Below are positions 2,721-19,038 of a stretch of DNA of 33,764 nucleotides, in pieces. This DNA is from Nitriliruptorales bacterium (lineage in GTDB: Bacteria > Actinomycetota > Nitriliruptoria > Euzebyales > Egibacteraceae). Below the pieces are notes generated by a model, which was not told the origin of the DNA, ran no database searches, and was given only the letters and a program-made list of their open reading frames with translations. The position numbers and the translations under genes were made by a program. The first letter of the stretch is position 1. The number at the start of each line of letters is the position of its first letter. The DNA lies in assembly GCA_007126835.1 (NCBI GenBank), contig SLAO01000059.1, positions 1 to 33,764 on the forward strand, given 5' to 3'.

Positions 2721-4733
2721 ATGGCCAAGGCAGGCGAGACGGGAGGCGTCTCGTCGCTGTGGGCGTCCGCGGGGGCAGCGTCTGAAAGCCGGCAGGCGCC
2801 GGTGGCCTCGGCCGCGGCGGCCGTTGACGGCGTGGCCGCGAAGTCCCTGGTCGCCCTCGCGAGCGCGATCGACGACATGGCGGGCACGGTGCTGTCGGGA
2901 GCGATCAGCGACGAAGAGCTGGTCGGTTCGGTGGGAGTGCTCCGTCGCCTGGAGGCGGTGATGGCCGCCGAGCGCTACCGACGCGTGGCCGAGGTCGACG
3001 CACGTTGCGCGTACAGGGTGGCGGGAGCCGGGTCGACCGAGACGTGGCTTTCGGAGGCCCAACAGGTCGCTCGCTCCGACGCCGCGGTGGAGGTGACCGT
3101 TGCTCGGGCTCTGTTGGAGCTGCCGGCCACGGCGGGGATGTTGGCGCGCGGTGAGATCGATGAGGCCCGCGCTCGCGTCGTGGGGACGGCTTGGCGTGAA
3201 GTGGCCCGCGAGACCGCCGCCGACGCCGAGGATGGCCCGGTGGGCGCTTCCGGCGATGACCGACAGCCTGACGGGGGAGCGGCACCAGGGGACGGGCCGC
3301 CCGGAGGCGCCGGCGGCGGCAACGACGCGCCGGGCGAGAGCGCACGGGCGGGTGGCGCTGGCGCTGCTGGTCGCGGTCCTGACGATGGCGGTGGCGCTCC
3401 CGTTGGCGAGGCCTGCGGTCCTGGTGGACCTGGCGTCAACGGTGACGGGGGCGGCGAGTGGTCTCGGGCAGACGAGGACGCCCGGGTGGCCGCGGCGGAG
3501 GCGGCGCGAGACCGCAATCGCGCGGCATTCGACAAGATGGTGGCGGGTCAAGCCGGTGACAAGGACCGCCATGGCGTCTCACGCGGGGTGAGACGGTGGC
3601 GGGATCGACAAGACCCCGACCGGCACGTCAGCCGGGCGAAGCGGGCGCATCGGCGTCGTGACCTGTGGATCGCCACCCAACGCGACGCCGACGGCACCAC
3701 GTTGATCAAGGGCAAGCTCGACGACGCCGGCGTGGCGAAGCTACGCGCCGCGGTCGACGCGCTGTCGCGGCCTGCGCAGGACGCCGAGCGCGCTCGAGAA
3801 GACAAGCGCACCCCGGGCCAGCGCCGTGCGGACGCGCTGGTGGCGTTGGCCGAGCGCTCCCTCGATGCCGGTGACCTGCCGTGGGTCGCGCGTCAGCGAC
3901 CCCACGTGCTGATGGTCACCTCGCCGGAGGGTCTCCACGGCATCGCCGGCGCGACAGCACCGCACCTTGACGGAGTCGGGGACATCGCCGCGGCGACTGC
4001 GCAGATGCTGTGCTGTGACGCCAGTATTGGCGAGGTGACGATCCGAAACGGCGAGGTGCTCGACGCCAAGCCGCGCCAGATGGCGGTGTCAGCTCGGCAG
4101 CGCGACGCGGTGCTAGCTCGGGACCGCCGCTGCGTCGGCTGCGGCGCTCGGGCGGCGCTGTGCCAGATCCACCACATCGTCTGGCTGTCCCGGGGCGGCA
4201 CCCACGACCTGTCCAACCTGGTGCTGGTTTGCTACGACTGCCACTTCCACATCCACCATCTGGGATGGCGGGTCGCCCGGCATGGCGATGGCGGCTACCG
4301 TCTCGACCGACCTCCAAAGCTGCGGTCGTCGGGTTCGCTGGGTGAAGACGCGAACGGCGACGACACGCTCGTGGGCGGAGACTCGGCAACCCGCAGGGAC
4401 GCCGCGGCTGATCGCGGCGCGAGAGACGGCGCCGACGGGAATCCCGAACCTGCCGAACCCCCCGAACCCGCACAGCGCGCCGGTGACCCCGGCGCTTCGG
4501 AAGGGGGGACGATGGCGGGAGGCGATGATGCCCGATCACGCCGCCCCAGACCGAGGTCGGGACCTACCCCAGATGACTCGGAGGCGCGGGCGTCCCGCGC
4601 CGGCCCCGGCAGACCGCGTCGGCGTCGCGGTCGGGGCAAGTCGAAAGCGCGTGACTCTTCCGAGCGCGCGCCCGCTGATCCCGTCGCCGAAGTCCCAGCC
4701 GAGCCAACGCTGTTCCCGGAAGGCCCTGGCTGA
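2721..4733 (+). CDS. DUF222 / HNH endonuclease domain protein (actinobacterial '13E12-type' family) with low-complexity insertions
   Basis: The N-terminal DUF222-like region reads 'SDEELVGSVGVLRRLEAVMAAERYRRVAEVDARCAYRVAGAGSTETWLSE...LPATAGMLARGEI'. The HNH motif reads 'DRRCVGCGARAALCQIHHIVWLSRGGTHDLSNLVLVCYDCHFHIHH'. There is also a Gly/Asp/Pro-rich insert and a roughly 130-aa disordered Arg-rich tail. Confidence 0.85.
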   Translation: MAKAGETGGVSSLWASAGAASESRQAPVASAAAAVDGVAAKSLVALASAIDDMAGTVLSGAISDEELVGSVGVLRRLEAVMAAERYRRVAEVDARCAYRVAGAGSTETWLSEAQQVARSDAAVEVTVARALLELPATAGMLARGEIDEARARVVGTAWREVARETAADAEDGPVGASGDDRQPDGGAAPGDGPPGGAGGGNDAPGESARAGGAGAAGRGPDDGGGAPVGEACGPGGPGVNGDGGGEWSRADEDARVAAAEAARDRNRAAFDKMVAGQAGDKDRHGVSRGVRRWRDRQDPDRHVSRAKRAHRRRDLWIATQRDADGTTLIKGKLDDAGVAKLRAAVDALSRPAQDAERAREDKRTPGQRRADALVALAERSLDAGDLPWVARQRPHVLMVTSPEGLHGIAGATAPHLDGVGDIAAATAQMLCCDASIGEVTIRNGEVLDAKPRQMAVSARQRDAVLARDRRCVGCGARAALCQIHHIVWLSRGGTHDLSNLVLVCYDCHFHIHHLGWRVARHGDGGYRLDRPPKLRSSGSLGEDANGDDTLVGGDSATRRDAAADRGARDGADGNPEPAEPPEPAQRAGDPGASEGGTMAGGDDARSRRPRPRSGPTPDDSEARASRAGPGRPRRRRGRGKSKARDSSERAPADPVAEVPAEPTLFPEGPG

Positions 4734-4803
4734 CGCCAGGCGCCTCGGCCCGACCGTGTCCAACCGCATCGGCGGCTACCGGGCGTGCGCGTATCGGCAC
4801 CTG

Positions 4804-4824
4804 GCCGCGGCCCCGCGGCTTTCT
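4804..4824 (+). terminator. Possible intrinsic terminator after the HNH gene
   Basis: GCCGCGG-CC-CCGCGGC inverted repeat (4804-4819) followed by TTTCT. It lies in the 127-bp gap between two convergent genes. Confidence 0.3.
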
Positions 4825-4860
4825 GGGCTTTCCTCGGACCGTGCCCGGCCCTACAGAGCC

Positions 4861-6246
4861 CTACAGATGCGACCAGTAGCCGCCGGGGGCGAACAGCTCG
4901 TCCACGCATTCGTCGAGCAGACCGGTCTCGATGGCCAGGTCCAACACCGTGTAGCGCGACCGGATCATCTGCGAGCGCCGGTACGTCGCTCGGAAGGCGT
5001 CGACGTCGAGGCCGATGTGGCCTGGTTCCGTCGGGCATCCGGCAGCGGCGAGCATGTCGCGCAGTTCATCGGGCGGCAGCAGCTGCTGGCCGAGGCGGTC
5101 GCGCAGCGTCGGCCAGGCGTTGGCCAGCCGCTTCAGACGCTCCCGGAGCTGGTCGGCGGTGATGTACTTCGCCGAGGTCTGCTTGACCGCGACCGCGCCG
5201 AGCAACGGATGGGCGTCGAGCACCGTGGCCTCCAGGTCGGCCGGGCTCGGCCACCGGTCACACACCGCATCGATGTCGATGGCAGCCAGGTCGCGGGCGA
5301 GCAGCCGCTCGTACAGCGCGGCAATCGCGATCGACCCGACCCCAACCTTGAAGCCGTGCGACAGCGGAGGGTCGTCGTCTCTGCCCAGCCCTTCCATCTC
5401 CCACAGGTGACTGAACTGATGCTCCGCACCAGACGCCGGCCGGGACGACGCATGGGCCTGCATCGCCAACCCCGACATGATCAAGCCCTCCACGAGAGCG
5501 CCGACCGCCTCGACATCGCCTGCGCGCAACTCGCTGGGTCGGCCGATGGACGCCCGCAGTGGACCTTGCACCAGCGACCACACCGATGTGTCGATCGCTT
5601 CGACGCCCAACGCGTCGGCGATGAGCCAGTCGGCGCCTGCGGGAACCTTGCCGAGCAGATCGCCGTACCCGTAGGCCGTCATCGGCGACGGCGCTGCCAC
5701 GAGCACGTCGAGGTCAGCGACGACAGCCCGCGGTGCGGGACACGACACGGTCTGCTTGTGCCCGTCCTTGGCCAGCGAGGCGCCAAACGACGAGTAGCCG
5801 TCCATCGAAGCGGCCGTCGCCACGGCCATGTACGGGCGCTCGGCTTCGTGCGCGGCGCGCTTGACGATGTCGTTCAACGTGCCGGCGCCCACCGCGACGG
5901 GGACCGCGTCGTGGGTCCGCAACGACTCCACCAACGGGCCCACGTTGTCGTAGCTGGCGTACAGCACGGGGCGCCCAGGGAACACGTAGGGCTCCACGCT
6001 GGGACGACCCTCCTGCGACAGCAGATCGGCGACCCGGGCGCCGGCGGCGTCCCACGTGTTGCCGTCAGCGACGATCACGACCGCGCGCTCTCCGAAGCAC
6101 CGGCCGAACACCGTGTTCACCGACGACAGCGCCCCCTGCGCGATGCGCACCTCATGGGTGTCGGTGGCGCCTTCGAGCGCCTTGCTGATCAGCTGGTCGT
6201 CCATCGCCTGCCCTTCGTCGTTGGCCGGGTCGGCGGAGCCTGGCAC
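4861..6246 (-). CDS. sn-glycerol-1-phosphate dehydrogenase-like (AraM/EgsA-type, DHQS/iron-ADH superfamily) polyol-phosphate dehydrogenase
   Basis: Nucleotide-binding 'VAVGAGTLNDIVKRAA', 'ATAASMDGYSS', and the metal-site motif 'SGAEHQFSHLWEM' typical of G1PDH-family enzymes. The start is either GTG 6246 or ATG 6204 (MDDQLISK, with a GAAGGG RBS). Confidence 0.75.
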   Translation of the reverse strand: MPGSADPANDEGQAMDDQLISKALEGATDTHEVRIAQGALSSVNTVFGRCFGERAVVIVADGNTWDAAGARVADLLSQEGRPSVEPYVFPGRPVLYASYDNVGPLVESLRTHDAVPVAVGAGTLNDIVKRAAHEAERPYMAVATAASMDGYSSFGASLAKDGHKQTVSCPAPRAVVADLDVLVAAPSPMTAYGYGDLLGKVPAGADWLIADALGVEAIDTSVWSLVQGPLRASIGRPSELRAGDVEAVGALVEGLIMSGLAMQAHASSRPASGAEHQFSHLWEMEGLGRDDDPPLSHGFKVGVGSIAIAALYERLLARDLAAIDIDAVCDRWPSPADLEATVLDAHPLLGAVAVKQTSAKYITADQLRERLKRLANAWPTLRDRLGQQLLPPDELRDMLAAAGCPTEPGHIGLDVDAFRATYRRSQMIRSRYTVLDLAIETGLLDECVDELFAPGGYWSHL

Positions 6247-6264
6247 CAGGCCCCGCCGACGGCG

Positions 6265-6726
6265 TCATCCCGTGGCCGAACCGCCGAGGTGGCGTTCTTC
6301 CACCGCGTTCATCTTCTCGACCTTTGGTGCGGAGCCTCCACCCTGGAACTCCGACTCCAGCCAGTGCTCCAGCACCAGCTCCGCAGCCTGCGGAGCGATC
6401 ACCCTGGCGCCCATCGTCAGGACCTGCGCGTCGTTTGACTTGCGGGCCCGCTCCGCCGAGTAGGCGTCGTGGGCCGTGGCCGCGCGCACGCCTGGCACCT
6501 TGTTGGCGGTGATCGCCATGCCGAGTCCGGTGCCGCAGACCAGCAATGCTCGATCGGTCTCCCCGCGCGCCACGCCTTCAGCAACCTTCTCGGCCACGTC
6601 GGGGTAGTCCTCACCCTCGCCGTTGCCGTAGTCCTTGACCTCGTGGCCGTGCTCGCGCAGGTACGTGACGAGGTGCTCCTTTAGTGGGGCGCCGGCATCG
6701 TCGGCGCCGACAGAGATGATCGCCAT
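6265..6726 (-). CDS. rpiB: Ribose-5-phosphate isomerase B / sugar-phosphate isomerase (RpiB/LacA/LacB family)
   Basis: 'MAIISVGADDAGAPLKEHLVTYL...ALLVCGTGLGMAITANKVPGVRAATAHDAYSAERARKSNDAQVLTMGARV' matches RpiB across the whole length, including the catalytic CGTG. A GAAGGAG RBS precedes the start. Confidence 0.9.
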   Translation of the reverse strand: MAIISVGADDAGAPLKEHLVTYLREHGHEVKDYGNGEGEDYPDVAEKVAEGVARGETDRALLVCGTGLGMAITANKVPGVRAATAHDAYSAERARKSNDAQVLTMGARVIAPQAAELVLEHWLESEFQGGGSAPKVEKMNAVEERHLGGSATG

Positions 6727-6760
6727 GGCAAGCTCCTTCGCGGGTTTCTCGTTTGCCGGT

Positions 6761-6799
6761 GGCGGCCGGCCCTGGCCTCACGGGGCGCAGCCGGCCGCC
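6761..6799 (-). other. Intercistronic GC hairpin between the FGGY kinase and rpiB
   Basis: Perfect 10-bp arms GGCGGCCGGC (6761-6770) and GCCGGCCGCC (6790-6799) separated by a 19-nt loop. It lies inside the 87-nt gap between the kinase stop and the rpiB start. Confidence 0.35.
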
Positions 6800-6813
6800 G
6801 TCGTTTCACGCTG

Positions 6814-8388
6814 TCAGCCGACGTGGTCCTCGCCGACGCGACGCACCACGCTGTGCACCAGGTCGCGCAGGGCGGGCCAGGTGTCGACGTAGTGGTCGAT
6901 GTAGAACTTGTATGTCTTGGTTCGCTGGGGATCGGGCTGGAACGTCTCGGTCTCGTGCACCATCGCCGCGGCGGCTTCCTCGACGCTGGGGAACACCCCC
7001 GCGCCGGCAGCGGCCAGGATCGCCGAGCCAAGCACCGCTGCGTCCCCGACCTTGGTCAGGGTCACGGGCACGCCTGTGACGTCGGCGTGCATCTGCGTCC
7101 ACACCCGGCTGTTGGTGGCGCCGCCAGCCGCGACGAACTGCTCGACGTCGAAGCCGGCGTCGGACATCGCCCGCAGCGTGTGAGCCACTCCGTAGCAGAC
7201 TCCTTCCTGGATCGCCCGGTAGACGTGCGCAGGGGAGTGGTGGAGGCTGAAGCCCCACATCACCCCACGGGCCTCCTGGTCGGTGTAGGGCGTGCGGTTG
7301 CCCTGCCAGTAGTCGAGCACGATCAGGCCCTCGGAGCCCGGGGGTATCTCGTCGGCCCGCTGGTTCATGATGTGATAGGGATCGACGCCCTCGGCCTCCG
7401 CCTCGGCGATGACGTCCTTCAAGAAGTTGTCCTTGAACCACTTCAGGACTGACCCGGTCGATACACCGCCACCCTCGACGGTGTGCTGGCCCGGCATCAC
7501 CGCCGACGGGTACGCGCCGAAGAACCCGCGCCCGCTCACCGACGCCGGGCTCTGGCCCGACAGCACGTGCGACGACCCGGTGATCAACGCCATCTTGCCG
7601 GGCTGGACGACGTTCAACCCGATCTGGGCGTGCCAGGCGTCGCCACCACCCTGCGCCACCGGCGTGTTGGGGGCCAACCCCAACTCCTCGGCGACGTCGG
7701 GCAGCAGACCGCCGACGTGCTCTCCGAGGTTCAAGACGTCGTCGGGCAGCTTCTCGAGCACGTCGCCGAGCCCGATCTCCTCGTAGAAGCTCGTCGGCCA
7801 CCCGCCGGTGTCGGCGTTGTAGTAGGCCCGCGTGCTGTTGGAGTTGATGTTGGCCGTCCAGCGGCCGGTCAGCCGGTACGTGATCCAGTCCGCACAGTCG
7901 ACTAGCCGGTGCGCGGCCTGGTAGACCTCGGGCTCCCGCTCCTTGAGCCACAGCGCCTTACAGGGGTACCACTCGGCGTTGACCGGCCCGCCGCCGTTGT
8001 AGGCCCGCGCAGGGTGGTCGGACTCGCCGATGCGCCGAGCCTGGTCGGTCGCGCGGACGTCCATCCACATGATCGCCGGTCGCAAGTGCTGGCCGTTTCC
8101 GTCGACGGCGACAAGCGTCAACGTGGTGGCGTCGTAGGAGATCCCAGCGATGTCTTGCGGGCTGACGCCGGTGCGCTGCATCGCGCCCCGAACCGACGAG
8201 ACGAGACCGTTCCACCAATCTGCAGGGTCTTGCTCCGCCCAGCCTGGATGTGGGTGGGTCAGTGGGTAGGGGGTGGCCTCGAAACCCAACGGTTGACCCT
8301 CGAGGTCGAACACGCCGACGCGCACGCTCTCGGTGCCCATGTCGATCCCGAGGACGTACGGTCCGCTGCTCTGTGCTGCGTCGGTCAT
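6814..8388 (-). CDS. FGGY-family carbohydrate kinase, pentulose (ribulokinase-like) type
   Basis: 'YVLGIDMGTESVRVGVFDLEGQP', 'GWAEQDPADWW' and the C-terminal 'VAAGGATNSRVWTQMHADVTGVPV' are FGGY N- and C-domain signatures. The size of about 524 aa fits pentulose kinases. I chose ATG 8388 because of the GGGAG RBS; the track start at 8412 has none. Confidence 0.85.
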   Translation of the reverse strand: MTDAAQSSGPYVLGIDMGTESVRVGVFDLEGQPLGFEATPYPLTHPHPGWAEQDPADWWNGLVSSVRGAMQRTGVSPQDIAGISYDATTLTLVAVDGNGQHLRPAIMWMDVRATDQARRIGESDHPARAYNGGGPVNAEWYPCKALWLKEREPEVYQAAHRLVDCADWITYRLTGRWTANINSNSTRAYYNADTGGWPTSFYEEIGLGDVLEKLPDDVLNLGEHVGGLLPDVAEELGLAPNTPVAQGGGDAWHAQIGLNVVQPGKMALITGSSHVLSGQSPASVSGRGFFGAYPSAVMPGQHTVEGGGVSTGSVLKWFKDNFLKDVIAEAEAEGVDPYHIMNQRADEIPPGSEGLIVLDYWQGNRTPYTDQEARGVMWGFSLHHSPAHVYRAIQEGVCYGVAHTLRAMSDAGFDVEQFVAAGGATNSRVWTQMHADVTGVPVTLTKVGDAAVLGSAILAAAGAGVFPSVEEAAAAMVHETETFQPDPQRTKTYKFYIDHYVDTWPALRDLVHSVVRRVGEDHVG

Positions 8389-8458
8389 GGTTGCGCTCCC
8401 TTGTTGCATCATCCCGTAGGTTTCGCGGCGGCGCGGCGCGCCTACCGCGTGGAACTGA

Positions 8459-9358
8459 TCATCCGTCGTGCCCGTCGTCCTCCTCCCATCCGAGGTACTC
8501 CCAAAGCCGGGGCGGCAGCAGACGATCCACGCGCTCGAGGACGAAGTCCGGTGCTTGCGCTGCAGGCAGCCCGTGCAGCTCGTCTCGCTGGGTGTCGCCG
8601 GTCAGCACCAGCGCGCTGGCAGCACCGGCTTCCCGCGCCAGCCGGATGTCCGTGCTGAGCCGGTCACCGACCATCACCGCGCGGGCGGGGTCAACCGTCA
8701 GCCCCGCCAGAGCGGTGTGCAAGATCGCCGGGTCGGGCTTGCCGACGTTGACCTCGCAGGTGGCGCCGGTGCAGGCTTCGATCGCCGCGACGACGGCGGC
8801 GCAGTCTGGTTCCCCGCGCCCTCCCGGCATCGGGCAGTACCGGTCGGGGTTGGTCGCCACGAGCCGCGCTCGCCTGTGGAACCACAAGGCGTCGAAGGCG
8901 ATCTGGAGCTTGCGGTACTCGAAGCCGCGGTCGTAGCTGGCGACGACGATGTCGATCTCGCTGGGGTCTTCGGACATGCGAATGCCGGCTTGCTCGAACG
9001 CCCGGATCAGCGGACCTTCGGCGATGGGGAACACCACCGCGTCGGGCGCGTTGTCGAGCAACCACCGGGTCATGACCACCACGGTGTTGACGATGTCGTC
9101 AACCGGTGTCGGCAGCCCCAGGGCCTCGAGCTTGTCCGCGTACTGCTGCGGGTCCTTCGTGGGATTGTTGGACAGGAACCGGACCGGGCGGTCCAGATCA
9201 CGCAACGCCGTGATCAGGCGGCCTGCCCCAGGCAGGAGGGCCTCACCGAGGTAGATCGTCCCGTCGAGGTCGAAGACGTAGGCGTCGTAGAGCTCGTCGG
9301 GGACCCGGCCCGCCGCCGGCCCCCGTCGGGGAGCCTGGCTCATCTGCGGGCTCGGCAT
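8459..9358 (-). CDS. HAD-IIA (NagD-like) sugar-phosphate phosphatase
   Basis: 'YVFDLDGTIYLGEALLPGAGRLI...RFLSNNPTK' gives HAD motifs I and II, and 'VGDRLSTDI' gives motif IV. ATG 9358 is preceded by GGAGGAACG. I trimmed the track ORF that starts at 9448. Confidence 0.85.
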   Translation of the reverse strand: MPSPQMSQAPRRGPAAGRVPDELYDAYVFDLDGTIYLGEALLPGAGRLITALRDLDRPVRFLSNNPTKDPQQYADKLEALGLPTPVDDIVNTVVVMTRWLLDNAPDAVVFPIAEGPLIRAFEQAGIRMSEDPSEIDIVVASYDRGFEYRKLQIAFDALWFHRRARLVATNPDRYCPMPGGRGEPDCAAVVAAIEACTGATCEVNVGKPDPAILHTALAGLTVDPARAVMVGDRLSTDIRLAREAGAASALVLTGDTQRDELHGLPAAQAPDFVLERVDRLLPPRLWEYLGWEEDDGHDG

Positions 9359-9780
9359 CGTTCCTCCGTTGGCCGGAGATCGTGCGGGCCGTCGGCCGTC
9401 CAGCTGGCGCCCGGGACGAGGCTCTTCCTGCGCGCGACCAGGCTCCACCGAGGCAACCCTGCTCGCGCCGACGGTCGCGTCCGTGACGGTACGACCTCCG
9501 CCCGGCAGTTGGCAATCGTCGCCATGGTCGCCCCTTACCCTCGAAGCCTGGAGCCTGTGCGCTGGCCGAACGTGCGTCCCAATCGTGCGCCGGCGCCGGT
9601 GCCGGTGTCGGCCCCGGAGAGCGTTGCCGCGGCAGCCGCCCTGCGCCAGGTCCTAAATCCCACGGTGGCCGGTGAGGCTCGGGGCCGCCGGGGGCCCGGG
9701 TTGTGCTCGCTTTCGACGACGGGTGCGCAAGGCCGGGAAGCCAGACCTGCCGTCGGAAGATCGGTCCGACTTCTGTTCAC

Positions 9781-9855
9781 TATCCGGTGGTTAGAACTAT
9801 CGTGTGTGTTACTCTACACATGAAATGTGTCGTTTACAACAGTCAAACGAACACG
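9781..9855. promoter_or_regulatory. AT-rich island with nested inverted repeats (candidate promoter/operator array or small-RNA element)
   Basis: GC content drops sharply here. It contains TGTGT-N6-ACACA (9804-9820), the 15-bp palindrome ACACAT-GAA-ATGTGT (9816-9830), and TCGTTT-N9-AAACGA (9830-9850). On the minus strand TTGTAA-17nt-TAGAGT reads as a possible -35/-10 pair pointing toward the HAD operon. Confidence 0.35.
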
Positions 9856-10016
9856 ATGCCGGGCACGGTGCCTGTGAGTGCGCACCACGGCCTGCCGACG
9901 GTCGACGCGCCACGGCGCGCGGAGACCGGATGACCACCGGCGCCGCCTGCGATGCGGTCCGCGCTAGCTCCCATGAGGTCCGAAGCGCGGTCCGGGGCAA
10001 CGGCTGCGGTCCCGCC

Positions 10017-10835
10017 TCAGGCGTCGGAGGCTGGCGCAACCTCCACCGCGACGCCGAGTTGGCGCAGCTCCTCGAGGTGCTCGGGTGCGATGCCCGAATC
10101 GACGATGACGAGGTCGAACTCCGTCACGGAGGCGAGATGATGGACCGCTCGCTTGCCGAACTTCGCGTGATCGGCCAGCAGGATCTTGCGGGCCGCCGCC
10201 TGCATGAGCGCCAGCTTGACCTCGATCGTCTCCTGGGAGCGGTGGTAGCAGCTTCCGGCGGTGATCGCGGTGGTCGACGCGAACAGCAGGTCGGCGGTCA
10301 TCGAGCCGACCGACTCGGCGGTGCGCAAGCCCAAGAACGCGTCGTACGCAGGGCGGTACGCGCCCCCCAGGGCGATCAGATCGATGCCGGGCTTGCGGCT
10401 GAGCAGCTGAAGGGAGGGCAGGAAGTTGGTGATGACCGTGACCGGTCGCCGGTTCGGCAGCAACTGGGCCAGCCCGTAGCCGGTCGTGCTCTCGTCGAGC
10501 ATGATCGTGTGGCCGCGCTCGACGTGGCCGAGGGCGTGCGCGGCGATCTCCCCCTTGGCGGCCGCCATGGCCTGCATCCGGTGGCGCACGTCGCCGTGGT
10601 AGAAGGCCGACGGCTCGGCAGTCGCGCCACCTCTGACCTTGCGGACCCAGCCCTGCTCCTCGAGCAGCTCGAGATCTCGACGGATGGTCATCCCGCTGAC
10701 CGCGAACGCGTCGGCGAGCTCGCCAACGGACACGAACCCGTGGGTCAGGATGCGCTCGCGGATCGCCTCTTGCCGGTCCTGCGGGCTCAGTTCGGACTCG
10801 GCTTCGGCGGGAATCTCGTCGGGCGTGCCTTCCAT
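10017..10835 (-). CDS. DeoR-family transcriptional regulator (HTH plus sugar-phosphate-binding DeoRC domain)
   Basis: 'RQEAIRERILTHGFVSVGELADAFAVSGMTIRRDLELLEEQGWVRKVRGGA' is the DeoR HTH. The C-terminal 'ADLLFASTTAITAG...KILLADHAKFGKRA' is the DeoRC effector domain. The start is ATG 10835; the track ORF extends to 11234 with no coding signal. Confidence 0.9.
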   Translation of the reverse strand: MEGTPDEIPAEAESELSPQDRQEAIRERILTHGFVSVGELADAFAVSGMTIRRDLELLEEQGWVRKVRGGATAEPSAFYHGDVRHRMQAMAAAKGEIAAHALGHVERGHTIMLDESTTGYGLAQLLPNRRPVTVITNFLPSLQLLSRKPGIDLIALGGAYRPAYDAFLGLRTAESVGSMTADLLFASTTAITAGSCYHRSQETIEVKLALMQAAARKILLADHAKFGKRAVHHLASVTEFDLVIVDSGIAPEHLEELRQLGVAVEVAPASDA

Positions 10836-11116
10836 GCGCGATCTCCGAACGACCGTTGCGGTCGCGGCAACTCCGACCGCGCCAAGGTCACACGGCAATG
10901 TAGCAGGGGCCAGGAAAAGCCCCGGAGCCGGATGCCCAACGCACACAACATCGCCGGTGGGCCTCCCCATTGGTGCGCGCCGATGCCGAGGCGTAGCGTC
11001 GAGGCAGCGGCCTTGGGCGTACGCTGCTGCCAGACGCAGCCACGTTCTGCGTTGCTGGTGCGGCAGCCGGCAACCCAGTCGGATTGACAGCCCACGGCAG
11101 AAGAGGAATTGAGCCG

Positions 11117-13144
11117 ATGCAGACCACTTCGACGGACACGACGACCGAGACGCTCGCGGTGGACACCGTGCGAGTGCTGGCGATGGATGCGATCGAGCGT
11201 GCAGGGGACGGCCACCCGGGCACGGCCATGGCACTGGCGCCAGCCGCCTACGTGCTGTGGTCGCAGTTCCTGCGCTTCGACCCCGCCGACCCCGACTGGC
11301 CAGACCGTGACCGGTTCGTGCTGTCGGTCGGTCACGCGTCGGTGCTCCAGCACATCGTGTTGCACCTGACCGGCTACGACCTCGGCATCGACGATCTCAA
11401 GTCCCAGCGTCAGCTGGGTTCGAGGACCCCCGGGCACCCTGAGCGCGGCCACACCCCCGGGGTCGAGACCACGACAGGCCCGCTCGGCCAGGGCGTCGGC
11501 AACGCGGTGGGTTTTGCGATCGCCGAGCGGCTGCTCGCCGACCGCGCCGGCGGCGACCTGGTCAACCACCGGACATGGGTCTTCGCCGGGGACGGCGACC
11601 TCATGGAGGGCGTGTCGGGCGAGGCGTCCTCCCTGGCCGGTCACCTCGGGCTGGACAAGCTCACCGTCTTGTACGACGACAACCGGATCACCATTGACGG
11701 CGGCACCGACCTTACCTTCAGCGAGGACGTGGGCGCCCGGTACGAGTCCTATGGCTGGCACGTGCAGCACATCGAGGACGCCAACGACCGCGACGCGATC
11801 GCCGCGGCGTACGCTGCGGCGGTGGCCGAGACCGAGCGGCCCTCGCTGATCCGGCTGCGCAGCGTCATCGCCTGGGGCGCGCCCAACAAGTCGGGCACGT
11901 CCTCGGCACACGGCTCGGCGCTGGGCGCCGACGAGGTGGCAGCCACCAAGACCTTCTACGGCTGGGATCCCGAGGCCACGTTCGTGGTGCCTGATGGGGT
12001 GCCCGAGCGCTGGCGCCAGCGGGTGCCCGAGCACCAGGCCGAGCGGCAGGCGTGGGAGTCTCGGGCGCAGGCGCGGGCCGAGCACGACCCAGACCTGGTG
12101 GCCAACTTGCGCTCCACGACCGGCGGCGTCCTGCCTGACGGCTGGGACGACGACCTCGAGGGCCTCTTCGACGACGCTGGCGCCATGGCCACCCGCAAGG
12201 CGTCGAGCAAGGTGATCCAGACCCTGGCGGCTCGCGTGCCCGGGCTCGTGGGTGGATCCGCCGACCTCGCGGGCTCGAACCTGACCACCATCGAGGGTGG
12301 GGGGGACCTGTCGCGCCACGAGGTCGGTCGCAACATCCACTTCGGCGTGCGCGAGCACGCGATGGGCGCGATCGCCAACGGCCTGGCTGCGCACGGCGGC
12401 CTGCATCCGTTCGTGGCGACGTTCCTGGTGTTCTCGGACTACATGCGGCCCTCGGTGCGCCTTGCGGCGTTGATGAGCTTGCCCGTGGTGTACGTGTGGA
12501 CCCACGACTCGGTCGGGCTGGGCGGCGACGGGCCCACCCACCAACCCGTCGAGCACCTGGCCTCGCTGCGGGCGATGCCCAACCTCGAGGTGATCCGCCC
12601 GGCCGACGGACCCGAGACGGTCGAGGCGTGGCGCGCGGCGCTGGCGCGCACCGACGGGCCCACGGCCCTGGCGTTCTCGCGCCAGTCGGTGCCGGTCTTG
12701 GACCGCGACGAGCTCGCCTCGGCGGCTGGTCTTGCCCGTGGCGGCTACGTGTTGCGGGAGGCCGGCGGTGGGGCACCGCAGCTGATCCTGATCGCCTCCG
12801 GCTCGGAGGTCGGCCTCGCGGTCGACGCGGCCGTGCGTCTCGAGGCCGAGGATGGCGTGCCGACGCGTGTTGTCTCCCTGCCCTGTTGGGAGCGGTTCTC
12901 CGACCAGGACGCGGACTACCGCGCCCGCGTGATCCCGGCGGACGTCCCGGCCCGCTTGGCTGTGGAGGCCGCCAGCCCATTTGGGTGGCGCGAGTGGGTC
13001 GGCGAGGCGGGGGAGACGCTGGGGGTGGAGACCTTCGGCGCGTCGGGCCCCGGCGGCGAGGTCCTGGCCGAGCGCGGCTTCACCGTGGACAACGTCGTTT
13101 CCAGGGCGCGCGGCCTGCTGTCCCGTCTTGACTCGAGCAAGTGA
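11117..13144 (+). CDS. tkt: Transketolase
   Basis: '[46 protein letters not shown]' and '[25 protein letters not shown]' are the ThDP-binding motifs. '[28 protein letters not shown]' is also present. An AAGAGGAA RBS precedes ATG 11117. Confidence 0.96.
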
Positions 13145-14645: not shown

Positions 14646-16031
14646 GTGACGCAATCTGGTCTGTCAGAGCAGGGCAACGGCGCTCAAGGCGGTCCCGGCC
14701 AGATGCCCGGCGACGTCGCCGAGCCGTCGGGCGGCTCGATGGTGCTGCCGCCGGTCGAACGGGGTGACGAGGCCTACGTCAGCCGGATCCCTGAGGGGAT
14801 GCTGGTCCGCGCGACCAGCGCAACCGGGGGCGCCTCTGGTGTGGGCGTGACGCCGCGGTTCAAGCAGGTCATCGACGAGTTCTCCGAGGCTGTCAGTGCC
14901 GGGGGCACGCCCGCGGGCTTTCGCATCGAATCGGCTGTCGATGGCGACGGCGCGGTCCGTTTCGACCTGGTGCGCGACATCTCACGCGACCGCAACGGCC
15001 AGCGGCGCCCCACGCCGCTGCTGTTCTCGGTGGACTCGGCCAACCCCTACGAGGTGGCGCCGTGTGCAGGCCTGGTCGCGAACCTCACCTGCAACCCGGG
15101 CATCGTCTACGACTTGTTCCTCAACAACCCCGAGGCCAACGTCGGCAACCGCTTTTCCACGCTCGAGGAGGTGATCGCCGAGCTTGGCCGTGTGCTCGGG
15201 CCGGGCTGCGACATGAGCGTGGAGCTGAACAACCCGTTCGCTGACTTCGGGCAGATCCTCGAGGACATCCACCGCTACGAAGAAATCGTCTCGTCGCACA
15301 GGCTGGTCGTCAAGGTGCCCCACACCGGACCGGTCAACGCCGACAACGTCTCGCAGTTGCTCACCGGCGACAAGCGCCTCGATCGTCGCTACGACCAGGG
15401 CAGCACGCAGGACTACCTGCACGGCCACAACCTTGCGTTGCGGCTGCACGAGCACGGCTACCGGGTCAACTTCACGCTGATGTTCGAGCCCCACCAGGTG
15501 CCGCTGGCGCTGCAGGCCAGGCCGTACTTCATCAACGCGTTCTTGCGGCACCGTCGAGCTGCCACGCGCACGCTGCAAGGGCTCGTCGCGGCATACGAGA
15601 CCACCCACGAGCGCGGGTTCCTCACCCAGCTGCGGGAGTACATGCTCAAGCAGGACTTCCTGTCGGCCCACGACACCGAGGCGGATCTGCTGTCGGTGCT
15701 CGAGAAGGCTCGCACCTACCTCTACAACCGCCGAGCCGACGGGGAGGGCGCCGACGGACTCGATTCCGCACGTCAGGCCCTGCGGTGGCTGCGCACCGCC
15801 CACCTGCCCGACACCCGCCTGATCATCTGCAGCATGGAAGGTCCCACCTGGTACCCAGACGTCACCGCCATGCTCACCGAGCCCGAGTTCGCCGACATGC
15901 ATGACCGGGTGGTCATCACCACCGAGCCCAACTACCTCGCACGGTGGTCCAGCGCCCCCCAAGTCGTCAGCTACCAACGCCGGTTCATGAACGCCGCACA
16001 AGCCGCCAACGAAGCCGCTGAAGCCACCTGA
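14646..16031 (+). CDS. Divergent transaldolase/FSA-fold (class I aldolase) protein with N-terminal extension and internal insertion; function unknown
   Basis: It aligns by eye with the neighbouring Tal and with FSA. 'LLFSVDSANPYEV' corresponds to VWVDS (Asp). 'ANLTCNPGIVYD' corresponds to TSNP (Asn). 'MSVELNNP' corresponds to SYEV (Glu). 'LVVKVPHTG' corresponds to IKIPAT (Schiff-base Lys). 'VNFTLMFE' corresponds to VNVTLIFS. 'NAFLRHRR' corresponds to FFVSRVD. GC3 is high. The start is uncertain (GTG 14646 or an internal ATG). Confidence 0.6.
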   Translation: MTQSGLSEQGNGAQGGPGQMPGDVAEPSGGSMVLPPVERGDEAYVSRIPEGMLVRATSATGGASGVGVTPRFKQVIDEFSEAVSAGGTPAGFRIESAVDGDGAVRFDLVRDISRDRNGQRRPTPLLFSVDSANPYEVAPCAGLVANLTCNPGIVYDLFLNNPEANVGNRFSTLEEVIAELGRVLGPGCDMSVELNNPFADFGQILEDIHRYEEIVSSHRLVVKVPHTGPVNADNVSQLLTGDKRLDRRYDQGSTQDYLHGHNLALRLHEHGYRVNFTLMFEPHQVPLALQARPYFINAFLRHRRAATRTLQGLVAAYETTHERGFLTQLREYMLKQDFLSAHDTEADLLSVLEKARTYLYNRRADGEGADGLDSARQALRWLRTAHLPDTRLIICSMEGPTWYPDVTAMLTEPEFADMHDRVVITTEPNYLARWSSAPQVVSYQRRFMNAAQAANEAAEAT

Positions 16032-16083: not shown

Positions 16084-16803
16084 ATGGTCGACCTCGCGAC
16101 TGTGACCAGTTGGGAGCTCGGAAAGTGCTTTGACCAGTCGGTGCTGCCGAAGAACACCACCGAGGAGGACATCCGGGAGGGAGCACGCCTCGCGGTGAAG
16201 TACAACTGCGCGGCGTTTTACAGCTCGTCGCCGTATTGGACTTCGGTCGTGCTCGAAGAGCTCGAGGGCACTGACGTTCTGCCAGCCGCCGCGATTGCGT
16301 TCCCCTTCGGCTCGGCGACATCGCTGGTGAAGGTCAAAGAAGCTGAGGAGGCCGCCAGTCTGGGCTGCCGAGCTTTGGACATGGTGATGAACATCGGTGC
16401 ATTGAAGAGCGGACGCAGCGATGACGTGCGCCGCGAGTGCCGGGAGTTCCGAGACGCGGCCGGCGACGCGCTCACGAAAGTGATCCTGGAGACTTGCTTC
16501 CTCACCGACGACGAGATCCGTCGCGGCTCGGAGATCGTGGCCGAGGAAGGCATCGACTACGTCAAGACGTCATCCGGGCAGTTCGAGGGTCCCAGCATGG
16601 AGCACGTCCTGATCATGCTGGACGCTGTCTCCGAGACCCCGACCAAGGTCAAGGTGGCGGGTGTGAAGTTCCCCCGACCCCAGAACGCCTACGCCTTCCT
16701 GCTTGCGGGCGTCGACCTGATCGGCACGCGCGACGCACCGACGATCATCGATGCACTAGACCAGATGCGGCAGATCGGGCTCGTCCCGGCCTACCGCGGC
16801 TGA
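16084..16803 (+). CDS. DeoC/DERA-family class I aldolase, paralog 1
   Basis: 'FDQSVLPKNTTEEDI', 'AFPFGSAT', 'LDMVMNIGALKSG', 'TKVILETCFLTDDEI', 'DYVKTSSGQ' (Schiff-base Lys) and 'KVKVAG' follow the DERA motif order. A GGAAAGGA RBS precedes the start. Confidence 0.8.
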   Translation: MVDLATVTSWELGKCFDQSVLPKNTTEEDIREGARLAVKYNCAAFYSSSPYWTSVVLEELEGTDVLPAAAIAFPFGSATSLVKVKEAEEAASLGCRALDMVMNIGALKSGRSDDVRRECREFRDAAGDALTKVILETCFLTDDEIRRGSEIVAEEGIDYVKTSSGQFEGPSMEHVLIMLDAVSETPTKVKVAGVKFPRPQNAYAFLLAGVDLIGTRDAPTIIDALDQMRQIGLVPAYRG

Positions 16804-16814
16804 GGAGGCAGAGC

Positions 16815-17504
16815 ATGCTGACCGTGGCCGAGTACGCCAAACATCTCGACATGGCCGTGCACCTCCAGAAGCTGGGCGAGGCCGACATCCGCCAGTACGC
16901 GCGGCAGGCGCGAGAGGCCAACGTCGCGGCCTTCTACACCAACCCGTTCTGGAACGCGGTGGTGGCCGAGGAGCTCGCGGGGTCCGACGTGCGGGTGGGG
17001 GCCGGGATCGCGTTTCCCTACGGTGCCACCACGACCGGCGTCAAGTTCGCCGAGATCTCCGACGCCCTGGAGAACGGCGCGACCGCGGTGGACATGGTCG
17101 TCAACATCGGGGCGCTCAAGGACGGCAACTACGTCCTGATCGACAAGGAGCTCGCCGGGCTGCGGGACCGTTGCGCCGGCACCGCGCTGACCAAGCTGAT
17201 CTTCGAGGTCGCGTTCTTGACCGACGAGGAGATCGTCACCCTGACCCGGATGTGCTGTGACGCCGGCTTGGACTACGTGAAGACCTCGACGGGCACTGAG
17301 GGCTTCCCGACCGAGCACCACGTCAAGCTCATGCGCGACAGCATCACCAATGACCGGACCAAGCTGAAGGTGTCCGGGGTGCCCCGCCAGTTCACGCTCG
17401 CCGCAACCTTGTGGATGCTCGACATGGGCGTGGACCTGATGGGCACCCGCAGCGCCGCCAACCTCGTGGCCGAATACGCCGCGCACCTCGCCGAGAAGTC
17501 CTAG
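16815..17504 (+). CDS. DeoC/DERA-family class I aldolase, paralog 2
   Basis: 'AFPYGATT', 'VDMVVNIGALKDG', 'TKLIFEVAFLTDEEI', 'DYVKTSTGT' and 'KLKVSG'. A GAGGAGG RBS precedes ATG 16815. The gene starts 11 nt after paralog 1 ends. I trimmed the track ORF starting at 16437. Confidence 0.8.
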   Translation: MLTVAEYAKHLDMAVHLQKLGEADIRQYARQAREANVAAFYTNPFWNAVVAEELAGSDVRVGAGIAFPYGATTTGVKFAEISDALENGATAVDMVVNIGALKDGNYVLIDKELAGLRDRCAGTALTKLIFEVAFLTDEEIVTLTRMCCDAGLDYVKTSTGTEGFPTEHHVKLMRDSITNDRTKLKVSGVPRQFTLAATLWMLDMGVDLMGTRSAANLVAEYAAHLAEKS

Positions 17505-17520
17505 CCGGAAGGAACCGAAC

Positions 17521-19038
17521 ATGTCGCAGTACCTGGTAGGCATCGACGCCGGGACCACTGGCTGCAAGACGTGCATCTTCGATGTCGAAGGCACCGTCAT
17601 CGCATCCGACTACCGTGAGTACCCCTCGTACTACCCGAAGCCTGGCTGGGTCGAGCAGCTGTCGGAAGACCTCGTGCCGCCGCTGTTCGACTCGTGCAAG
17701 GCCGCGGTCGAGCGCTCCGGCGTGGACCCCGCAGAGATCGTCGCGCTGGCCATCTCGACACAGGGCTCGATCATCGGCCTGCTCGATGAGCGAGGCGAGA
17801 CCATCCGACCTTGGATCGGCTGGCAAGACCTACGGGGCGAGCCGTACCTCGAGGAGATCAAGAAGCTCATCCCGCAGGACCGGTACTACCAGATCACCGG
17901 CGACCCGCTCGGGGCGATCTTCTCGATCAGCAAGCTGGCCTGGCTCAAGGACAACGAGCCCGAAAACTGGGCGCGTGCCGAGCTGTTCTCCACCGAGCAG
18001 GACTTCCTCCTGCGCCAGTGGGGAGCCGACGAGTACTGGACGGACCTGTCCTCGGCTTCGCGCGAGGGCATGTTGGACATCGACAACTTCGTGTGGTCCA
18101 AGGAGATCCACGACCTGATGGGCATCCCCTTGGAGAAGCGGGCGAAGATTTCGACCGAGCCCGGCCAGGTGGTCGGGCGCCTGTCGAAGGAGGTCGCCGA
18201 GCGCAGCGGCCTGGCCGAGGGCACCCTGCTGTGCGTGGGCGCGCACGACCAGAACTGCTCGACGTTCGGGGCCGGTGCGGTTCGCGGCGGCGACACGGTC
18301 ATGGTCATCGGCACGTTCGGCTCGTGCTTCGTCGTCATGGACGAATCCAAGCGGGACCCCAACGCCAAGCTCGTCGTCAAGCCCAACCACGGCTTGGACA
18401 ACTGGACGATCGAGGCGTTCTCGGTCACGTCGGCATCGGCGTTCCGCTGGTACCGGGACACGTTCGCGGACCTGGAGGTCGCCGCCTCCAAGCAGCTGCG
18501 CGAGGACCCCTACGACCTGATCACCCGAGCCATCGCGGGCGTGCCTCCCGGCTCGGACGGCATCACGTTCCTGCCCTTCCTGCAGGGCGCGTCGGGTGCG
18601 CGCCTCAACGCCAACGCCCGCGGCACGTTCGTGGGGATGAGCCTGGGCACGTCGAAGGCCGCGATGGCCCGCGCGGTGCTTGAGGGAATCTCCTTCGAGA
18701 TGAAGGACATCCTGCTCGCCCAAGCCGCCGCCGGGATCGACATCGGCGCCATCCGTCTGACCGGCGGAGCGGCGAAGTCGCCGATGTGGTGCCAGATGCT
18801 CGCCGACATCTTCCAGCGACCCATCGAGCTGCTGCAGACCTCCGAAACCGGCGCCCTCGGTGCGGCCCTGTACGCCGGGGTTGGGGCAGGCATCTACGCC
18901 GACTGCACCGAGGCGGCCGATCGCGCGGTGAAGATCAGCAAGCGCTACGAGCCCGACCCCACCGTCGTGGACCAGTACGAGGAGGCCTTCGACCGCTTCG
19001 TCCGCGTCTACGAAGCACTCGACGGCCGGATCTTCTAG
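17521..19038 (+). CDS. FGGY-family carbohydrate kinase (xylulokinase-like)
   Basis: 'YLVGIDAGTTGCKTCIFDVEG', 'GWVEQLSEDL', 'LCVGAHDQNCSTFGAG' and 'RLTGGAAKSPMWCQMLADIFQRPI'. A GGAAGGAA RBS precedes the start, which is 16 nt after the preceding gene. Confidence 0.9.
   Translation: MSQYLVGIDAGTTGCKTCIFDVEGTVIASDYREYPSYYPKPGWVEQLSEDLVPPLFDSCKAAVERSGVDPAEIVALAISTQGSIIGLLDERGETIRPWIGWQDLRGEPYLEEIKKLIPQDRYYQITGDPLGAIFSISKLAWLKDNEPENWARAELFSTEQDFLLRQWGADEYWTDLSSASREGMLDIDNFVWSKEIHDLMGIPLEKRAKISTEPGQVVGRLSKEVAERSGLAEGTLLCVGAHDQNCSTFGAGAVRGGDTVMVIGTFGSCFVVMDESKRDPNAKLVVKPNHGLDNWTIEAFSVTSASAFRWYRDTFADLEVAASKQLREDPYDLITRAIAGVPPGSDGITFLPFLQGASGARLNANARGTFVGMSLGTSKAAMARAVLEGISFEMKDILLAQAAAGIDIGAIRLTGGAAKSPMWCQMLADIFQRPIELLQTSETGALGAALYAGVGAGIYADCTEAADRAVKISKRYEPDPTVVDQYEEAFDRFVRVYEALDGRIF

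Follow-up and report, generated by a model that had tools for sequence, protein, structure and literature searches.

A conserved phosphatase, kinase, isomerase and dehydrogenase operon with a DerI-type isomerase as a possible tetritol catabolic unit in a soda-lake actinobacterium

The stretch of DNA under study (contig SLAO01000059.1 of the Nitriliruptorales bacterium assembly GCA_007126835.1; 33,764 nucleotides, hereafter the window) represents contig C49 in a metagenome-assembled genome of 2.1 Mb which originates from a soda-lake metagenome, is 64% complete and has a G+C content of about 70%. Between positions 4861 and 9358 the window contains four co-directional genes on its minus strand, encoding a HAD-IIA phosphatase, an FGGY carbohydrate kinase, an isomerase of the RpiB family and a 447-residue dehydrogenase resembling AraM and sn-glycerol-1-phosphate dehydrogenase (G1PDH), in the vicinity of genes for a DeoR-type regulator, a transketolase (tkt) and a transaldolase (tal). 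Our main result is that the operon 'rpiB' in all likelihood encodes an isomerase of D-erythrulose-4-phosphate (DerI), converting D-erythrulose-4-phosphate to D-erythrose-4-phosphate, as judged from its residue signature and its phylogenetic position. The pathway would then end in erythrose-4-phosphate, which makes a pentitol route unlikely. We thus tentatively propose, with a confidence falling somewhat short of even, that the operon degrades a C4 sugar alcohol, namely erythritol and/or threitol, and perhaps free erythrulose as well, with D-erythrose-4-phosphate as the end product. The four genes are the following:

4861-6204, minus strand: AraM/G1PDH-like dehydrogenase, 447 amino acids (Pfam Fe-ADH_2, 1.6e-33)
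6265-6726, minus strand: RpiB-family isomerase of DerI/EryI type (LacAB_rpiB, 2e-49)
6814-8412 (alternative start 8388), minus strand: FGGY carbohydrate kinase, paralogue A (FGGY_N and FGGY_C)
8459-9358, minus strand: HAD-IIA phosphatase of NagD/AraL type (Hydrolase_6 and Hydrolase_like; TIGR01460, 109.1 bits against a cut-off of 100.15)

The assignment of the isomerase was approached using NCBIfam equivalog models, whose cut-offs are 138.65 bits for TIGR01120 (rpiB), 168.2 bits for TIGR02133 and 240 bits for NF051858 (DerI), together with an alignment and a tree in which one Rhizobium sequence is the single verified DerI reference. The operon isomerase fails both rpiB equivalogs (129.5 bits with TIGR01120 and 147.2 bits with TIGR02133) and reaches 161.3 bits with NF051858, which is below the cut-off, a shortfall to be expected for a cross-phylum relative of a model that was built on Rhizobiales sequences. 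The Rhizobium protein, an RpiB-family member from plasmid pRspN324e of Rhizobium sp. N324, passes this DerI equivalog with 256.9 bits, and its gene is found in a cluster with oiaX, a four-carbon-acid kinase and a TIM-like gene (triose-phosphate isomerase, TIM). A second RpiB is encoded in the genome under study (contig C147), which passes TIGR01120 (167.8 bits), scores 105 bits with NF051858 and is, from its sequence, a canonical RpiB. The operon copy is thus a paralogue and not the sole isomerase of the genome, a point on which the initial annotation had made its proposal depend; RpiA was not found in the genome, which at 64% completeness does not amount to evidence of absence.

Inspection of the alignment reveals the motifs GADDAG, VCGTG, KSNDAQ and GGGSAPKV in the operon isomerase and GADSAG, FCGTG, KSNNAQ and GPSAGNV in the Rhizobium DerI. 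The canonical motifs GSDHAG, SHNDAN and GGRHQRRV are those of the C147 copy, and the same set (the last as GGRHxxRV) is present in the RpiBs of C. thermocellum and E. coli (PDB 3he8 and 2vvr). Both the operon isomerase and the Rhizobium DerI carry serine in place of the canonical His99 and His134, and neither has His10 or Arg133; in fact, all five canonical residues (His10, His99, Arg133, His134 and Arg137) are replaced in the operon isomerase, which retains the catalytic cysteine and hence displays the complete DerI signature of histidine losses, serine replacements and arginine loss. In RpiB, His99 opens the furanose ring of the substrate, and Arg133, His134 and Arg137 hold its 5-phosphate. 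A tetrose 4-phosphate is unable to form a furanose ring and carries its phosphate nearer by one carbon, which makes the DerI-type replacements chemically sensible.

This pattern extends to the RpiB homologues that are linked to the same gene set in other genomes (n=50), among which serine occupies the His99 site in 47 of 49 and the His134 site in 48 of 50, and lysine the Arg137 site in 47 of 50. The sole two canonical sequences in this group are the rpiB-tal-tkt copies of Dormibacterota, and the DerI-type signature is found in Cys-type and Glu-type backbones alike. In the phylogeny, a FastTree clade of 32 sequences with a support of 0.91 unites the window protein with the Rhizobium DerI and with proteins from enterobacterial tetritol clusters; the C147 RpiB and the canonical Dormibacterota copies (loci L014 and L026) fall outside it. 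The nearest relatives from enterobacterial plasmids are found in clusters composed of a zinc-dependent alcohol dehydrogenase (Zn-ADH), a major facilitator superfamily (MFS) transporter and DhaK/DhaL, followed by the RpiB-like gene, tal and tkt. An RpiB-like match from Streptomyces rimosus had no other cassette gene within 12 kb. Of the tetritol or pentitol route that had been put forward initially, the DerI signature and clade thus sustain the tetritol part and speak against the pentitol part.

Two further observations concern the annotation of this family. On plasmids of Salmonella enterica and E. coli (L094 and L095), genes for a SorC-type regulator, DhaL, DhaK, in part a short-chain dehydrogenase (SDR), an MFS transporter and a Zn-ADH are divergent from an RpiB-like gene with the DerI signature, tal and, in part, tkt; the isomerase bears the plain label rpiB, and the layout matches the tetritol route of Mycobacterium smegmatis type (PMC10733421). 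Also, in seven loci from Rubrobacteraceae and other Actinomycetota (L019, L025, L040, L041, L051, L059 and L062) the isomerases are of Glu type (GGTGLGE) and pass the 'RPI_actino' model TIGR02133, and they still carry the DerI-type Ser/Ser/Lys replacements. Judging from these residues, TIGR02133 probably names some erythrulose-4-phosphate isomerases as ribose-5-phosphate isomerase.

The four genes are separated by short gaps of 46, 87 and 60 nucleotides, and each start is preceded by a Shine-Dalgarno-like motif, namely a strong GGAGGA ahead of the phosphatase ATG at 9358, AAGGGAG for the kinase start at 8388, AAGGAG for the isomerase and GAAGGG for the dehydrogenase, which confirms the arrangement of co-directional genes with short gaps and individual ribosome-binding sites described before. 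For the kinase, the motif at 8388 is better than that at 8412, and for the dehydrogenase the homologues cover the protein from the ATG at 6204, the GTG at 6246 yielding 461 residues. In order to evaluate the conservation of this organization, the window proteins were used to search 80 dehydrogenase loci from species-representative genomes of Nitriliruptoria/Euzebyales, Rubrobacteria, Solirubrobacterales, Propionibacteriaceae, Dormibacterota and Chloroflexota, counting neighbours within 10 kb. The HAD-IIA gene was found near the dehydrogenase gene in 61 of the 80 loci, a kinase of the same clade in 63 and an RpiB homologue in 49, all three being present together in 40; when the comparison is limited to the 61 loci with at least 4.5 kb of upstream sequence, this last figure is 37. 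Transketolase (12/80), transaldolase (7/80) and a DeoR homologue (16/80) are less frequent neighbours, and the phosphatase is the most constant one, being present in 54 of the 61 loci with enough flank. The gene set recurs far beyond chance and constitutes a conserved unit with links to tkt/tal and DeoR, so that this part of the earlier proposal is borne out by the neighbourhood comparison across 80 genomes. Two Dormibacterota loci (L014 and L026) as well as one complete Rubrobacteraceae genome (L035) have tkt and tal embedded in the gene string of the cassette.

Non-halophilic lineages from soil and from hosts commonly carry the cassette, and other genes accompany it recurrently: a GpsA-like NAD-dependent dehydrogenase of glycerol-3-phosphate type (24 loci), a Zn-ADH (9), an MFS transporter (8) and a GlpD-like FAD dehydrogenase (7). 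Several clusters, for example that on plasmid 2 of Rubrobacter radiotolerans, carry a separate Zn-ADH for free polyols. A tree of the kinases resolves one clade with two sister paralogues, of which A is located between the HAD and RpiB genes and B just upstream of the dehydrogenase gene; many genomes have both and the window carries A only. Among cassette-bearing isolates, Pseudopropionibacterium massiliense Marseille-P6184 (L065) metabolises erythritol, ribitol and both arabitols and does not metabolise glycerol (PMC6849414), a phenotype which is consistent with polyol catabolism and mildly disfavours a glycerol-centred role. A literature search retrieved no paper on an AraM-type dehydrogenase, or on a cassette of HAD phosphatase, kinase, isomerase and dehydrogenase, in tetritol metabolism.

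Two of these loci deserve a description of their own. The cassette on plasmid 2 of the cultured strain Rubrobacter radiotolerans RSPS-4 (L092, 58786-83232) is expanded, with genes for a HAD-IA protein, an FGGY kinase, a 2-hydroxyacid dehydrogenase, a further FGGY kinase, a Zn-ADH and a fused protein of the dihydroxyacetone kinase (DAK) family, continuing with HAD-IIA, G1PDH-like, DerI-type RpiB, FGGY, GpsA-like and GlpD-like genes, i.e. with three kinds of glycerol-phosphate-type dehydrogenase in one gene string. At L065 (6461-7567), a conserved and very hydrophobic protein of about 368 residues, without a Pfam family, is encoded between the genes for the DerI-type isomerase and the HAD protein; eight other loci have it too (L009, L044, L060, L064, L069, L073, L083 and L084), all of these loci but L009 and L083 being titled Propionibacteriaceae, Arachnia or Pseudopropionibacterium. 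We consider this membrane protein a candidate for a new polyol transporter.

Turning to the dehydrogenase, it belongs to a strongly conserved family of about 450 residues with more than 6400 homologues, the nearest of those listed having 423-493 residues and being 62-93% identical, and across 18 diverse members the column identity averages 75%. It displays the dehydroquinate synthase (DHQS)-like Fe-ADH_2 fold, the GxGxxxD nucleotide motif and the Asp/His/His metal site, and the GAEHxxSH motif is present as ASGAEHQFSH, which agrees with the earlier description of a DHQS-like enzyme of G1PDH/AraM type rather than an FAD enzyme. The best relative of solved structure is a 414-residue G1PDH (PDB 9h4x, E = 1e-46), which we take to be B. 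subtilis AraM, with about 40% identity over the catalytic part and with the motifs SMDG, GDLLGK and RPASGAEHxxSH in common. GAGTLND, SMDG (D135), AEH (H262) and LSHG (H283) align with PDB 9h4x, 5fb3 and 4rgq and are invariant in the family, whose invariant residues include D135, H262, H266, H283, R415 and R417; from the alignment with AraM, the metal ligands are likely D135, H262 and H283. The C-terminal domain of the 450-residue family is longer and strongly conserved. With the G1PDH equivalog NF002022 the protein scores 162.8 bits against a cut-off of 413, residues 32-313 only being matched, although NF002022 is an archaeal model and a low score by itself does not exclude G1PDH activity. PcrB/GGGPS, which uses sn-glycerol-1-phosphate, was not found in the genome at its 64% completeness. 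Also, a haloarchaeal protein annotated as G1PDH turned out to be a glycolaldehyde reductase devoid of G1PDH activity (PMC9700705), so that the 'G1PDH' label is unreliable for divergent members. We propose that the enzyme is an NAD(P)- and metal-dependent tetritol-phosphate dehydrogenase, considering its gene context: a phosphorylated polyol is suggested as the substrate because the DerI step needs erythrulose-4-phosphate, dedicated kinases are present, GpsA- and GlpD-like enzymes are recurrent partners and separate Zn-ADHs occur in related clusters.

The kinase, which by its sequence is part of a clade specific to the cassette, scores below the cut-offs of the ribulokinase, xylulokinase, glycerol kinase, gluconokinase and autoinducer-2 kinase equivalogs, the best being ribulokinase (300.5 bits against 428), with 293 against 380 for XylB and 169 against 590 for GlpK. 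Among its homologues, one from Skermanella is 48% identical and adjoins a Zn-ADH and an ABC transporter, and one on a Priestia plasmid is found in an unrelated context. From its position in the cassette we propose that it acts as a tetritol (or tetrulose) kinase. The phosphatase contains the DxDGT motif (as FDLDGT), and its relatives of known structure comprise NagD-type p-nitrophenylphosphatases, pyridoxal phosphatase and glycerol-3-phosphate phosphatases. Speculatively, it could act as a safety valve against the build-up of sugar phosphates, remove a wrong enantiomer arising from a meso substrate, or serve a reverse, erythritol-forming direction.

Within our tentative reading of a tetritol-degrading operon, the FGGY kinase would phosphorylate the tetritol to D-erythritol-4-phosphate which, on stereochemical reasoning, is the enantiomer opposite to that of Brucella. 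The AraM/G1PDH-like enzyme would then oxidise the carbinol beside the free CH2OH end to yield D-erythrulose-4-phosphate: by analogy, a grip of G1PDH type on the HOCH2-CHOH end would accept the (2S) carbinol of D-erythritol-4-phosphate. Oxidation at C2 of this compound would directly form the DerI substrate, whereas oxidation beside the phosphate, as by EryB, would also require a TIM-like isomerase, which is absent from the operon; only one TIM-family gene was found in the recovered genome (contig C141). The DerI-type isomerase would convert D-erythrulose-4-phosphate to D-erythrose-4-phosphate, being the best-supported step by virtue of both signature and phylogeny, and the adjoining transketolase and transaldolase would bring this product into the pentose phosphate pathway. 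Going by its family, the DeoR protein is probably a repressor that keeps the operon off until a phosphorylated intermediate is present. As proposed for AraL, the HAD-IIA phosphatase might, speculatively, hydrolyse surplus polyol or sugar phosphate or the wrong enantiomer. The fully specified version of this scheme, a three-step erythritol and/or threitol route composed of a kinase forming D-erythritol-4-phosphate, an AraM/G1PDH-type tetritol-4-phosphate 2-dehydrogenase and DerI, in which the HAD-IIA phosphatase would recycle a dead-end enantiomer as a metabolite repair made necessary by the meso substrate, appears to us rather doubtful in all its details, though worth stating.

A comparison with known systems indicates that the end of the proposed pathway (DerI, then tkt/tal) follows known tetritol logic and that its front part differs from those of Brucella and M. 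smegmatis. The pair of phosphatase and dehydrogenase has its closest precedent, a parallel that the initial annotation did not draw, in the araABDLMNPQ-abfA operon of B. subtilis, where araL (a HAD-IIA sugar phosphatase) stands beside araM (a Ni-dependent G1PDH). This operon also includes the FGGY kinase AraB, has a pentose as substrate and lacks an RpiB/DerI gene; AraM has about 394 residues and is not known to have been assayed other than as G1PDH. The cassette differs in that it has an RpiB/DerI gene and a dehydrogenase of about 450 residues with a longer conserved C-terminal domain. Archaeal EgsA, the protein represented by NF002022, shares with the dehydrogenase the fold, the nucleotide motif and the metal site described above, but the score of the dehydrogenase lies far below the cut-off of that model and the context in the window is one of sugar catabolism rather than lipid synthesis.

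The ery systems of Brucella and Rhizobium have in common with the proposed cassette an FGGY kinase acting on the polyol, the oxidation of a polyol phosphate, an RpiB-family D-erythrulose-4-phosphate isomerase, the tkt/tal connection and DeoR-type regulation. They employ, however, the GlpD-type FAD dehydrogenase EryB and two further isomerases, EryC and EryH/TpiA2 (PMC12542623), no homologues of which are present in the operon, which has an AraM-type dehydrogenase and a HAD-IIA phosphatase instead; its kinase is only putatively comparable to EryA, and a shorter three-step route via the other enantiomer would be implied. The Brucella route had been given as three steps, and this needs correction, as it consists of five, i.e. 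kinase, dehydrogenase and three isomerisations (PMC12542623), and an EryB-like product would require EryC and EryH, which are found neither in the cassette nor in the recovered genome. The accompanying idea of a non-orthologous replacement of EryB is also too simple, since Rubrobacter clusters hold G1PDH-like, GlpD-like (EryB-type) and GpsA-like genes at once. In M. smegmatis, the tetritol routes start by oxidising the free polyol and then phosphorylate the ketose (PMC10733421). These routes (EltD/DthD, LerK/DerK, LerI and DerI) and the enterobacterial clusters resemble the cassette in the DerI-type end enzyme and the link to tal/tkt, but the former use dehydrogenases of the Zn-ADH or SDR type and the latter kinases of the DhaK/L type, and both lack a G1PDH-like enzyme and a HAD-IIA phosphatase, unlike the cassette.

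A number of points weigh against a tetritol phosphate pathway. The operon has no transporter gene within the window; a kinase and a phosphatase in the same operon amount to a futile cycle unless their substrates differ; the substrates of kinase and dehydrogenase are deduced solely from context; and the roles attributed to the isomerase residues (ring opening and phosphate binding) are taken over from the RpiB literature on E. coli and M. tuberculosis. Further, the best models for the kinase are those of ketose kinases (ribulokinase and xylulokinase) and its Skermanella homologue has a dehydrogenase-first arrangement; the dehydrogenase keeps all the motifs shared with AraM and may simply be a G1PDH; and P. 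massiliense also uses pentitols, so that its phenotype cannot distinguish C4 from C5 substrates. Some of these points lend themselves to a different order of steps, according to the M. smegmatis logic, in which the free tetritol is first turned into erythrulose by the G1PDH-like enzyme, much as glycerol dehydrogenase treats glycerol, the FGGY kinase then makes erythrulose-4-phosphate and the DerI-type isomerase finishes with erythrose-4-phosphate. This order, which we regard as unlikely yet deserving consideration, would have the same DerI-type end step and fits the ketose-kinase models, the Zn-ADH and ABC transporter of the Skermanella locus and the fact that kinase paralogue A always adjoins the isomerase, as if making its substrate; the annotated G1PDH that is a glycolaldehyde reductase (PMC9700705) is a further argument. 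However, the substrate is phosphorylated in the case of the characterised proteins closest to the dehydrogenase, which retains the motifs shared with them, it pairs with GpsA-like and GlpD-like phospho-polyol dehydrogenases, the clusters often hold a separate Zn-ADH and DAK kinase for a dehydrogenase-first branch, and the tetrulose kinases seen in tetritol clusters (enterobacterial) are of the DAK family rather than FGGY.

The same enzymes could also operate in reverse, as a redox valve or for making a compatible solute, from erythrose-4-phosphate via erythrulose-4-phosphate and erythritol-4-phosphate to erythritol, with the kinase serving re-uptake. Such a direction would give the phosphatase, the most constant partner of the dehydrogenase, a direct role, it would suit an organism from a soda lake, and lactic acid bacteria that produce erythritol are postulated to have an erythritol-4-phosphate dehydrogenase and phosphatase, neither of which has ever been identified (PMC12542623). 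We nevertheless consider it improbable, as the cassette hardly ever comes without one or two dedicated kinases, the DeoR regulator and the MFS or membrane transporters and extra polyol dehydrogenases of related clusters fit uptake and catabolism, the cassette is not confined to halophiles, and a cassette-bearing isolate consumes erythritol. Similarly low is the probability we assign to a true G1PDH, i.e. an AraM orthologue, in a cassette handling glycerol phosphates, for instance in scavenging sn-glycerol-1-phosphate from teichoic acids or phosphatidylglycerol or in converting it to glycerol-3-phosphate via phosphatase and kinase. The identity to 9h4x with all motifs kept, the frequent GpsA-like and GlpD-like neighbours and the same pairing with a HAD-IIA gene in araL-araM of B. 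subtilis are in its favour, but it leaves unexplained the DerI-type isomerase and the tkt/tal linkage, the kinases are far from glycerol kinase, no user of sn-glycerol-1-phosphate of PcrB/GGGPS type was found in the 64%-complete genome, and P. massiliense does not use glycerol. A pentitol route, from ribitol or arabitol via pentitol-5-phosphate and ribulose-5-phosphate to ribose-5-phosphate through ordinary RpiB activity, is very improbable: the kinase is nearest to pentulose-kinase models, P. massiliense uses ribitol and the arabitols and the tkt/tal linkage would fit pentoses too, but the isomerase is devoid of the His and Arg residues typical of canonical RpiB and falls together with DerI, a canonical RpiB is present elsewhere in the genome, and no ribulose-phosphate 3-epimerase gene is found among the recurrent neighbours.

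Concerning the implications, the annotation 'sn-glycerol-1-phosphate dehydrogenase' is attached to thousands of bacterial proteins, which figure in debates on the lipid divide between bacteria and archaea, and the cassette suggests that a large 'G1PDH' branch of Actinomycetota, Chloroflexota and Dormibacterota works in sugar-alcohol catabolism. It would also represent a short route from erythritol or threitol to erythrose-4-phosphate made of enzyme families not yet assigned to that job, and the residue signature is a simple means of telling erythrulose-4-phosphate isomerases apart from true RpiB when genomes are annotated. Were the three-step route to hold, the bacterial 'G1PDH' family would gain a catabolic function unrelated to archaeal-type lipids, a purpose would be suggested for the unexplained araL-araM pair of Bacillus, and candidates would be at hand both for the erythritol genes of propionibacteria, which have never been identified, and for the two enzymes, dehydrogenase and phosphatase of erythritol-4-phosphate, that are being looked for in lactic acid bacteria. 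Cultured organisms amenable to testing are Rubrobacter radiotolerans RSPS-4 (plasmid 2), Pseudopropionibacterium massiliense and Nigerium massiliense.

The features upstream of the operon are the following:

9359-10016, minus strand: 658-nucleotide spacer between the DeoR gene and the operon (read from the sequence)
10017-10835, minus strand: DeoR/GlpR-family regulator (HTH_DeoR and DeoRC)
11084-13144, plus strand: tkt (TIGR00232, 817 bits against 682)
ending at 14348, plus strand: tal (transaldolase model, 485 bits against 367)

The tkt-tal pair is divergent from the DeoR gene. The DeoR and tkt-tal context reported initially is thus present, except that the DeoR gene is 658 nucleotides upstream of the HAD gene and not directly adjacent to it. 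The DeoR protein scores below the cut-offs of the AgaR, GlpR and SrlR models and is probably a sugar-phosphate-responsive repressor of the operon. No true transketolase gene other than the tkt of the window was found in the genome at 64% completeness; this tkt and tal are probably the housekeeping copies, so that the operon here adjoins housekeeping genes of the pentose phosphate pathway. Within the spacer, an island of 35% G+C (9811-9860) stands out against the 70% of the genome and holds a weak promoter-like pair, TTGTAA (9834-9839) and TAGAGT (9811-9816), with a spacing of 17 nucleotides and below the threshold of the consensus scan, which returned no promoter, and terminators at chance level only. 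A perfect 6-3-6 palindrome, ACACATttcATGTGT (9816-9830), overlaps this pair; nine related loci do not retain it ahead of their HAD gene, and we regard it as a candidate operator only. If the promoter is real, the operon would have a leader of about 450 nucleotides without an Rfam match, the Rfam scan of positions 4500-11300 having detected no riboswitch or leader RNA in the spacer.

An RNA library of the same soda-lake sample contains contigs identical to parts of the kinase gene (6818-7063 and 7454-7707), as well as to tkt, tal, deoC and a second kinase gene, which is a weak hint of operon expression; coverage by such contigs is slight or absent over parts of the operon, including most of the dehydrogenase gene, and this is uninformative as to their expression.

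Downstream of tkt-tal, deoC (passing TIGR00126) and then the second FGGY kinase, which is xylulokinase-like but below the cut-off (314 against 380), are located on the plus strand at 16437-19038, both being spanned by one RNA-library contig of 2364 nucleotides, and this pair may constitute a separate deoxy-sugar or pentose module. Between tal and deoC, where actinobacteria usually carry zwf/opcA, a plus-strand open reading frame of 461 residues (14646-16031) belongs to no Pfam or NCBIfam family, its sole match being transaldolase-like and below threshold (21 bits against 27); RNA-library contigs cover it. On the other side of the operon, a plus-strand DUF222/HNH endonuclease gene (2721-4733) with long low-complexity stretches rich in Gly, Ala, Asp and Arg is convergent with the dehydrogenase gene, whose end is 127 nucleotides away.

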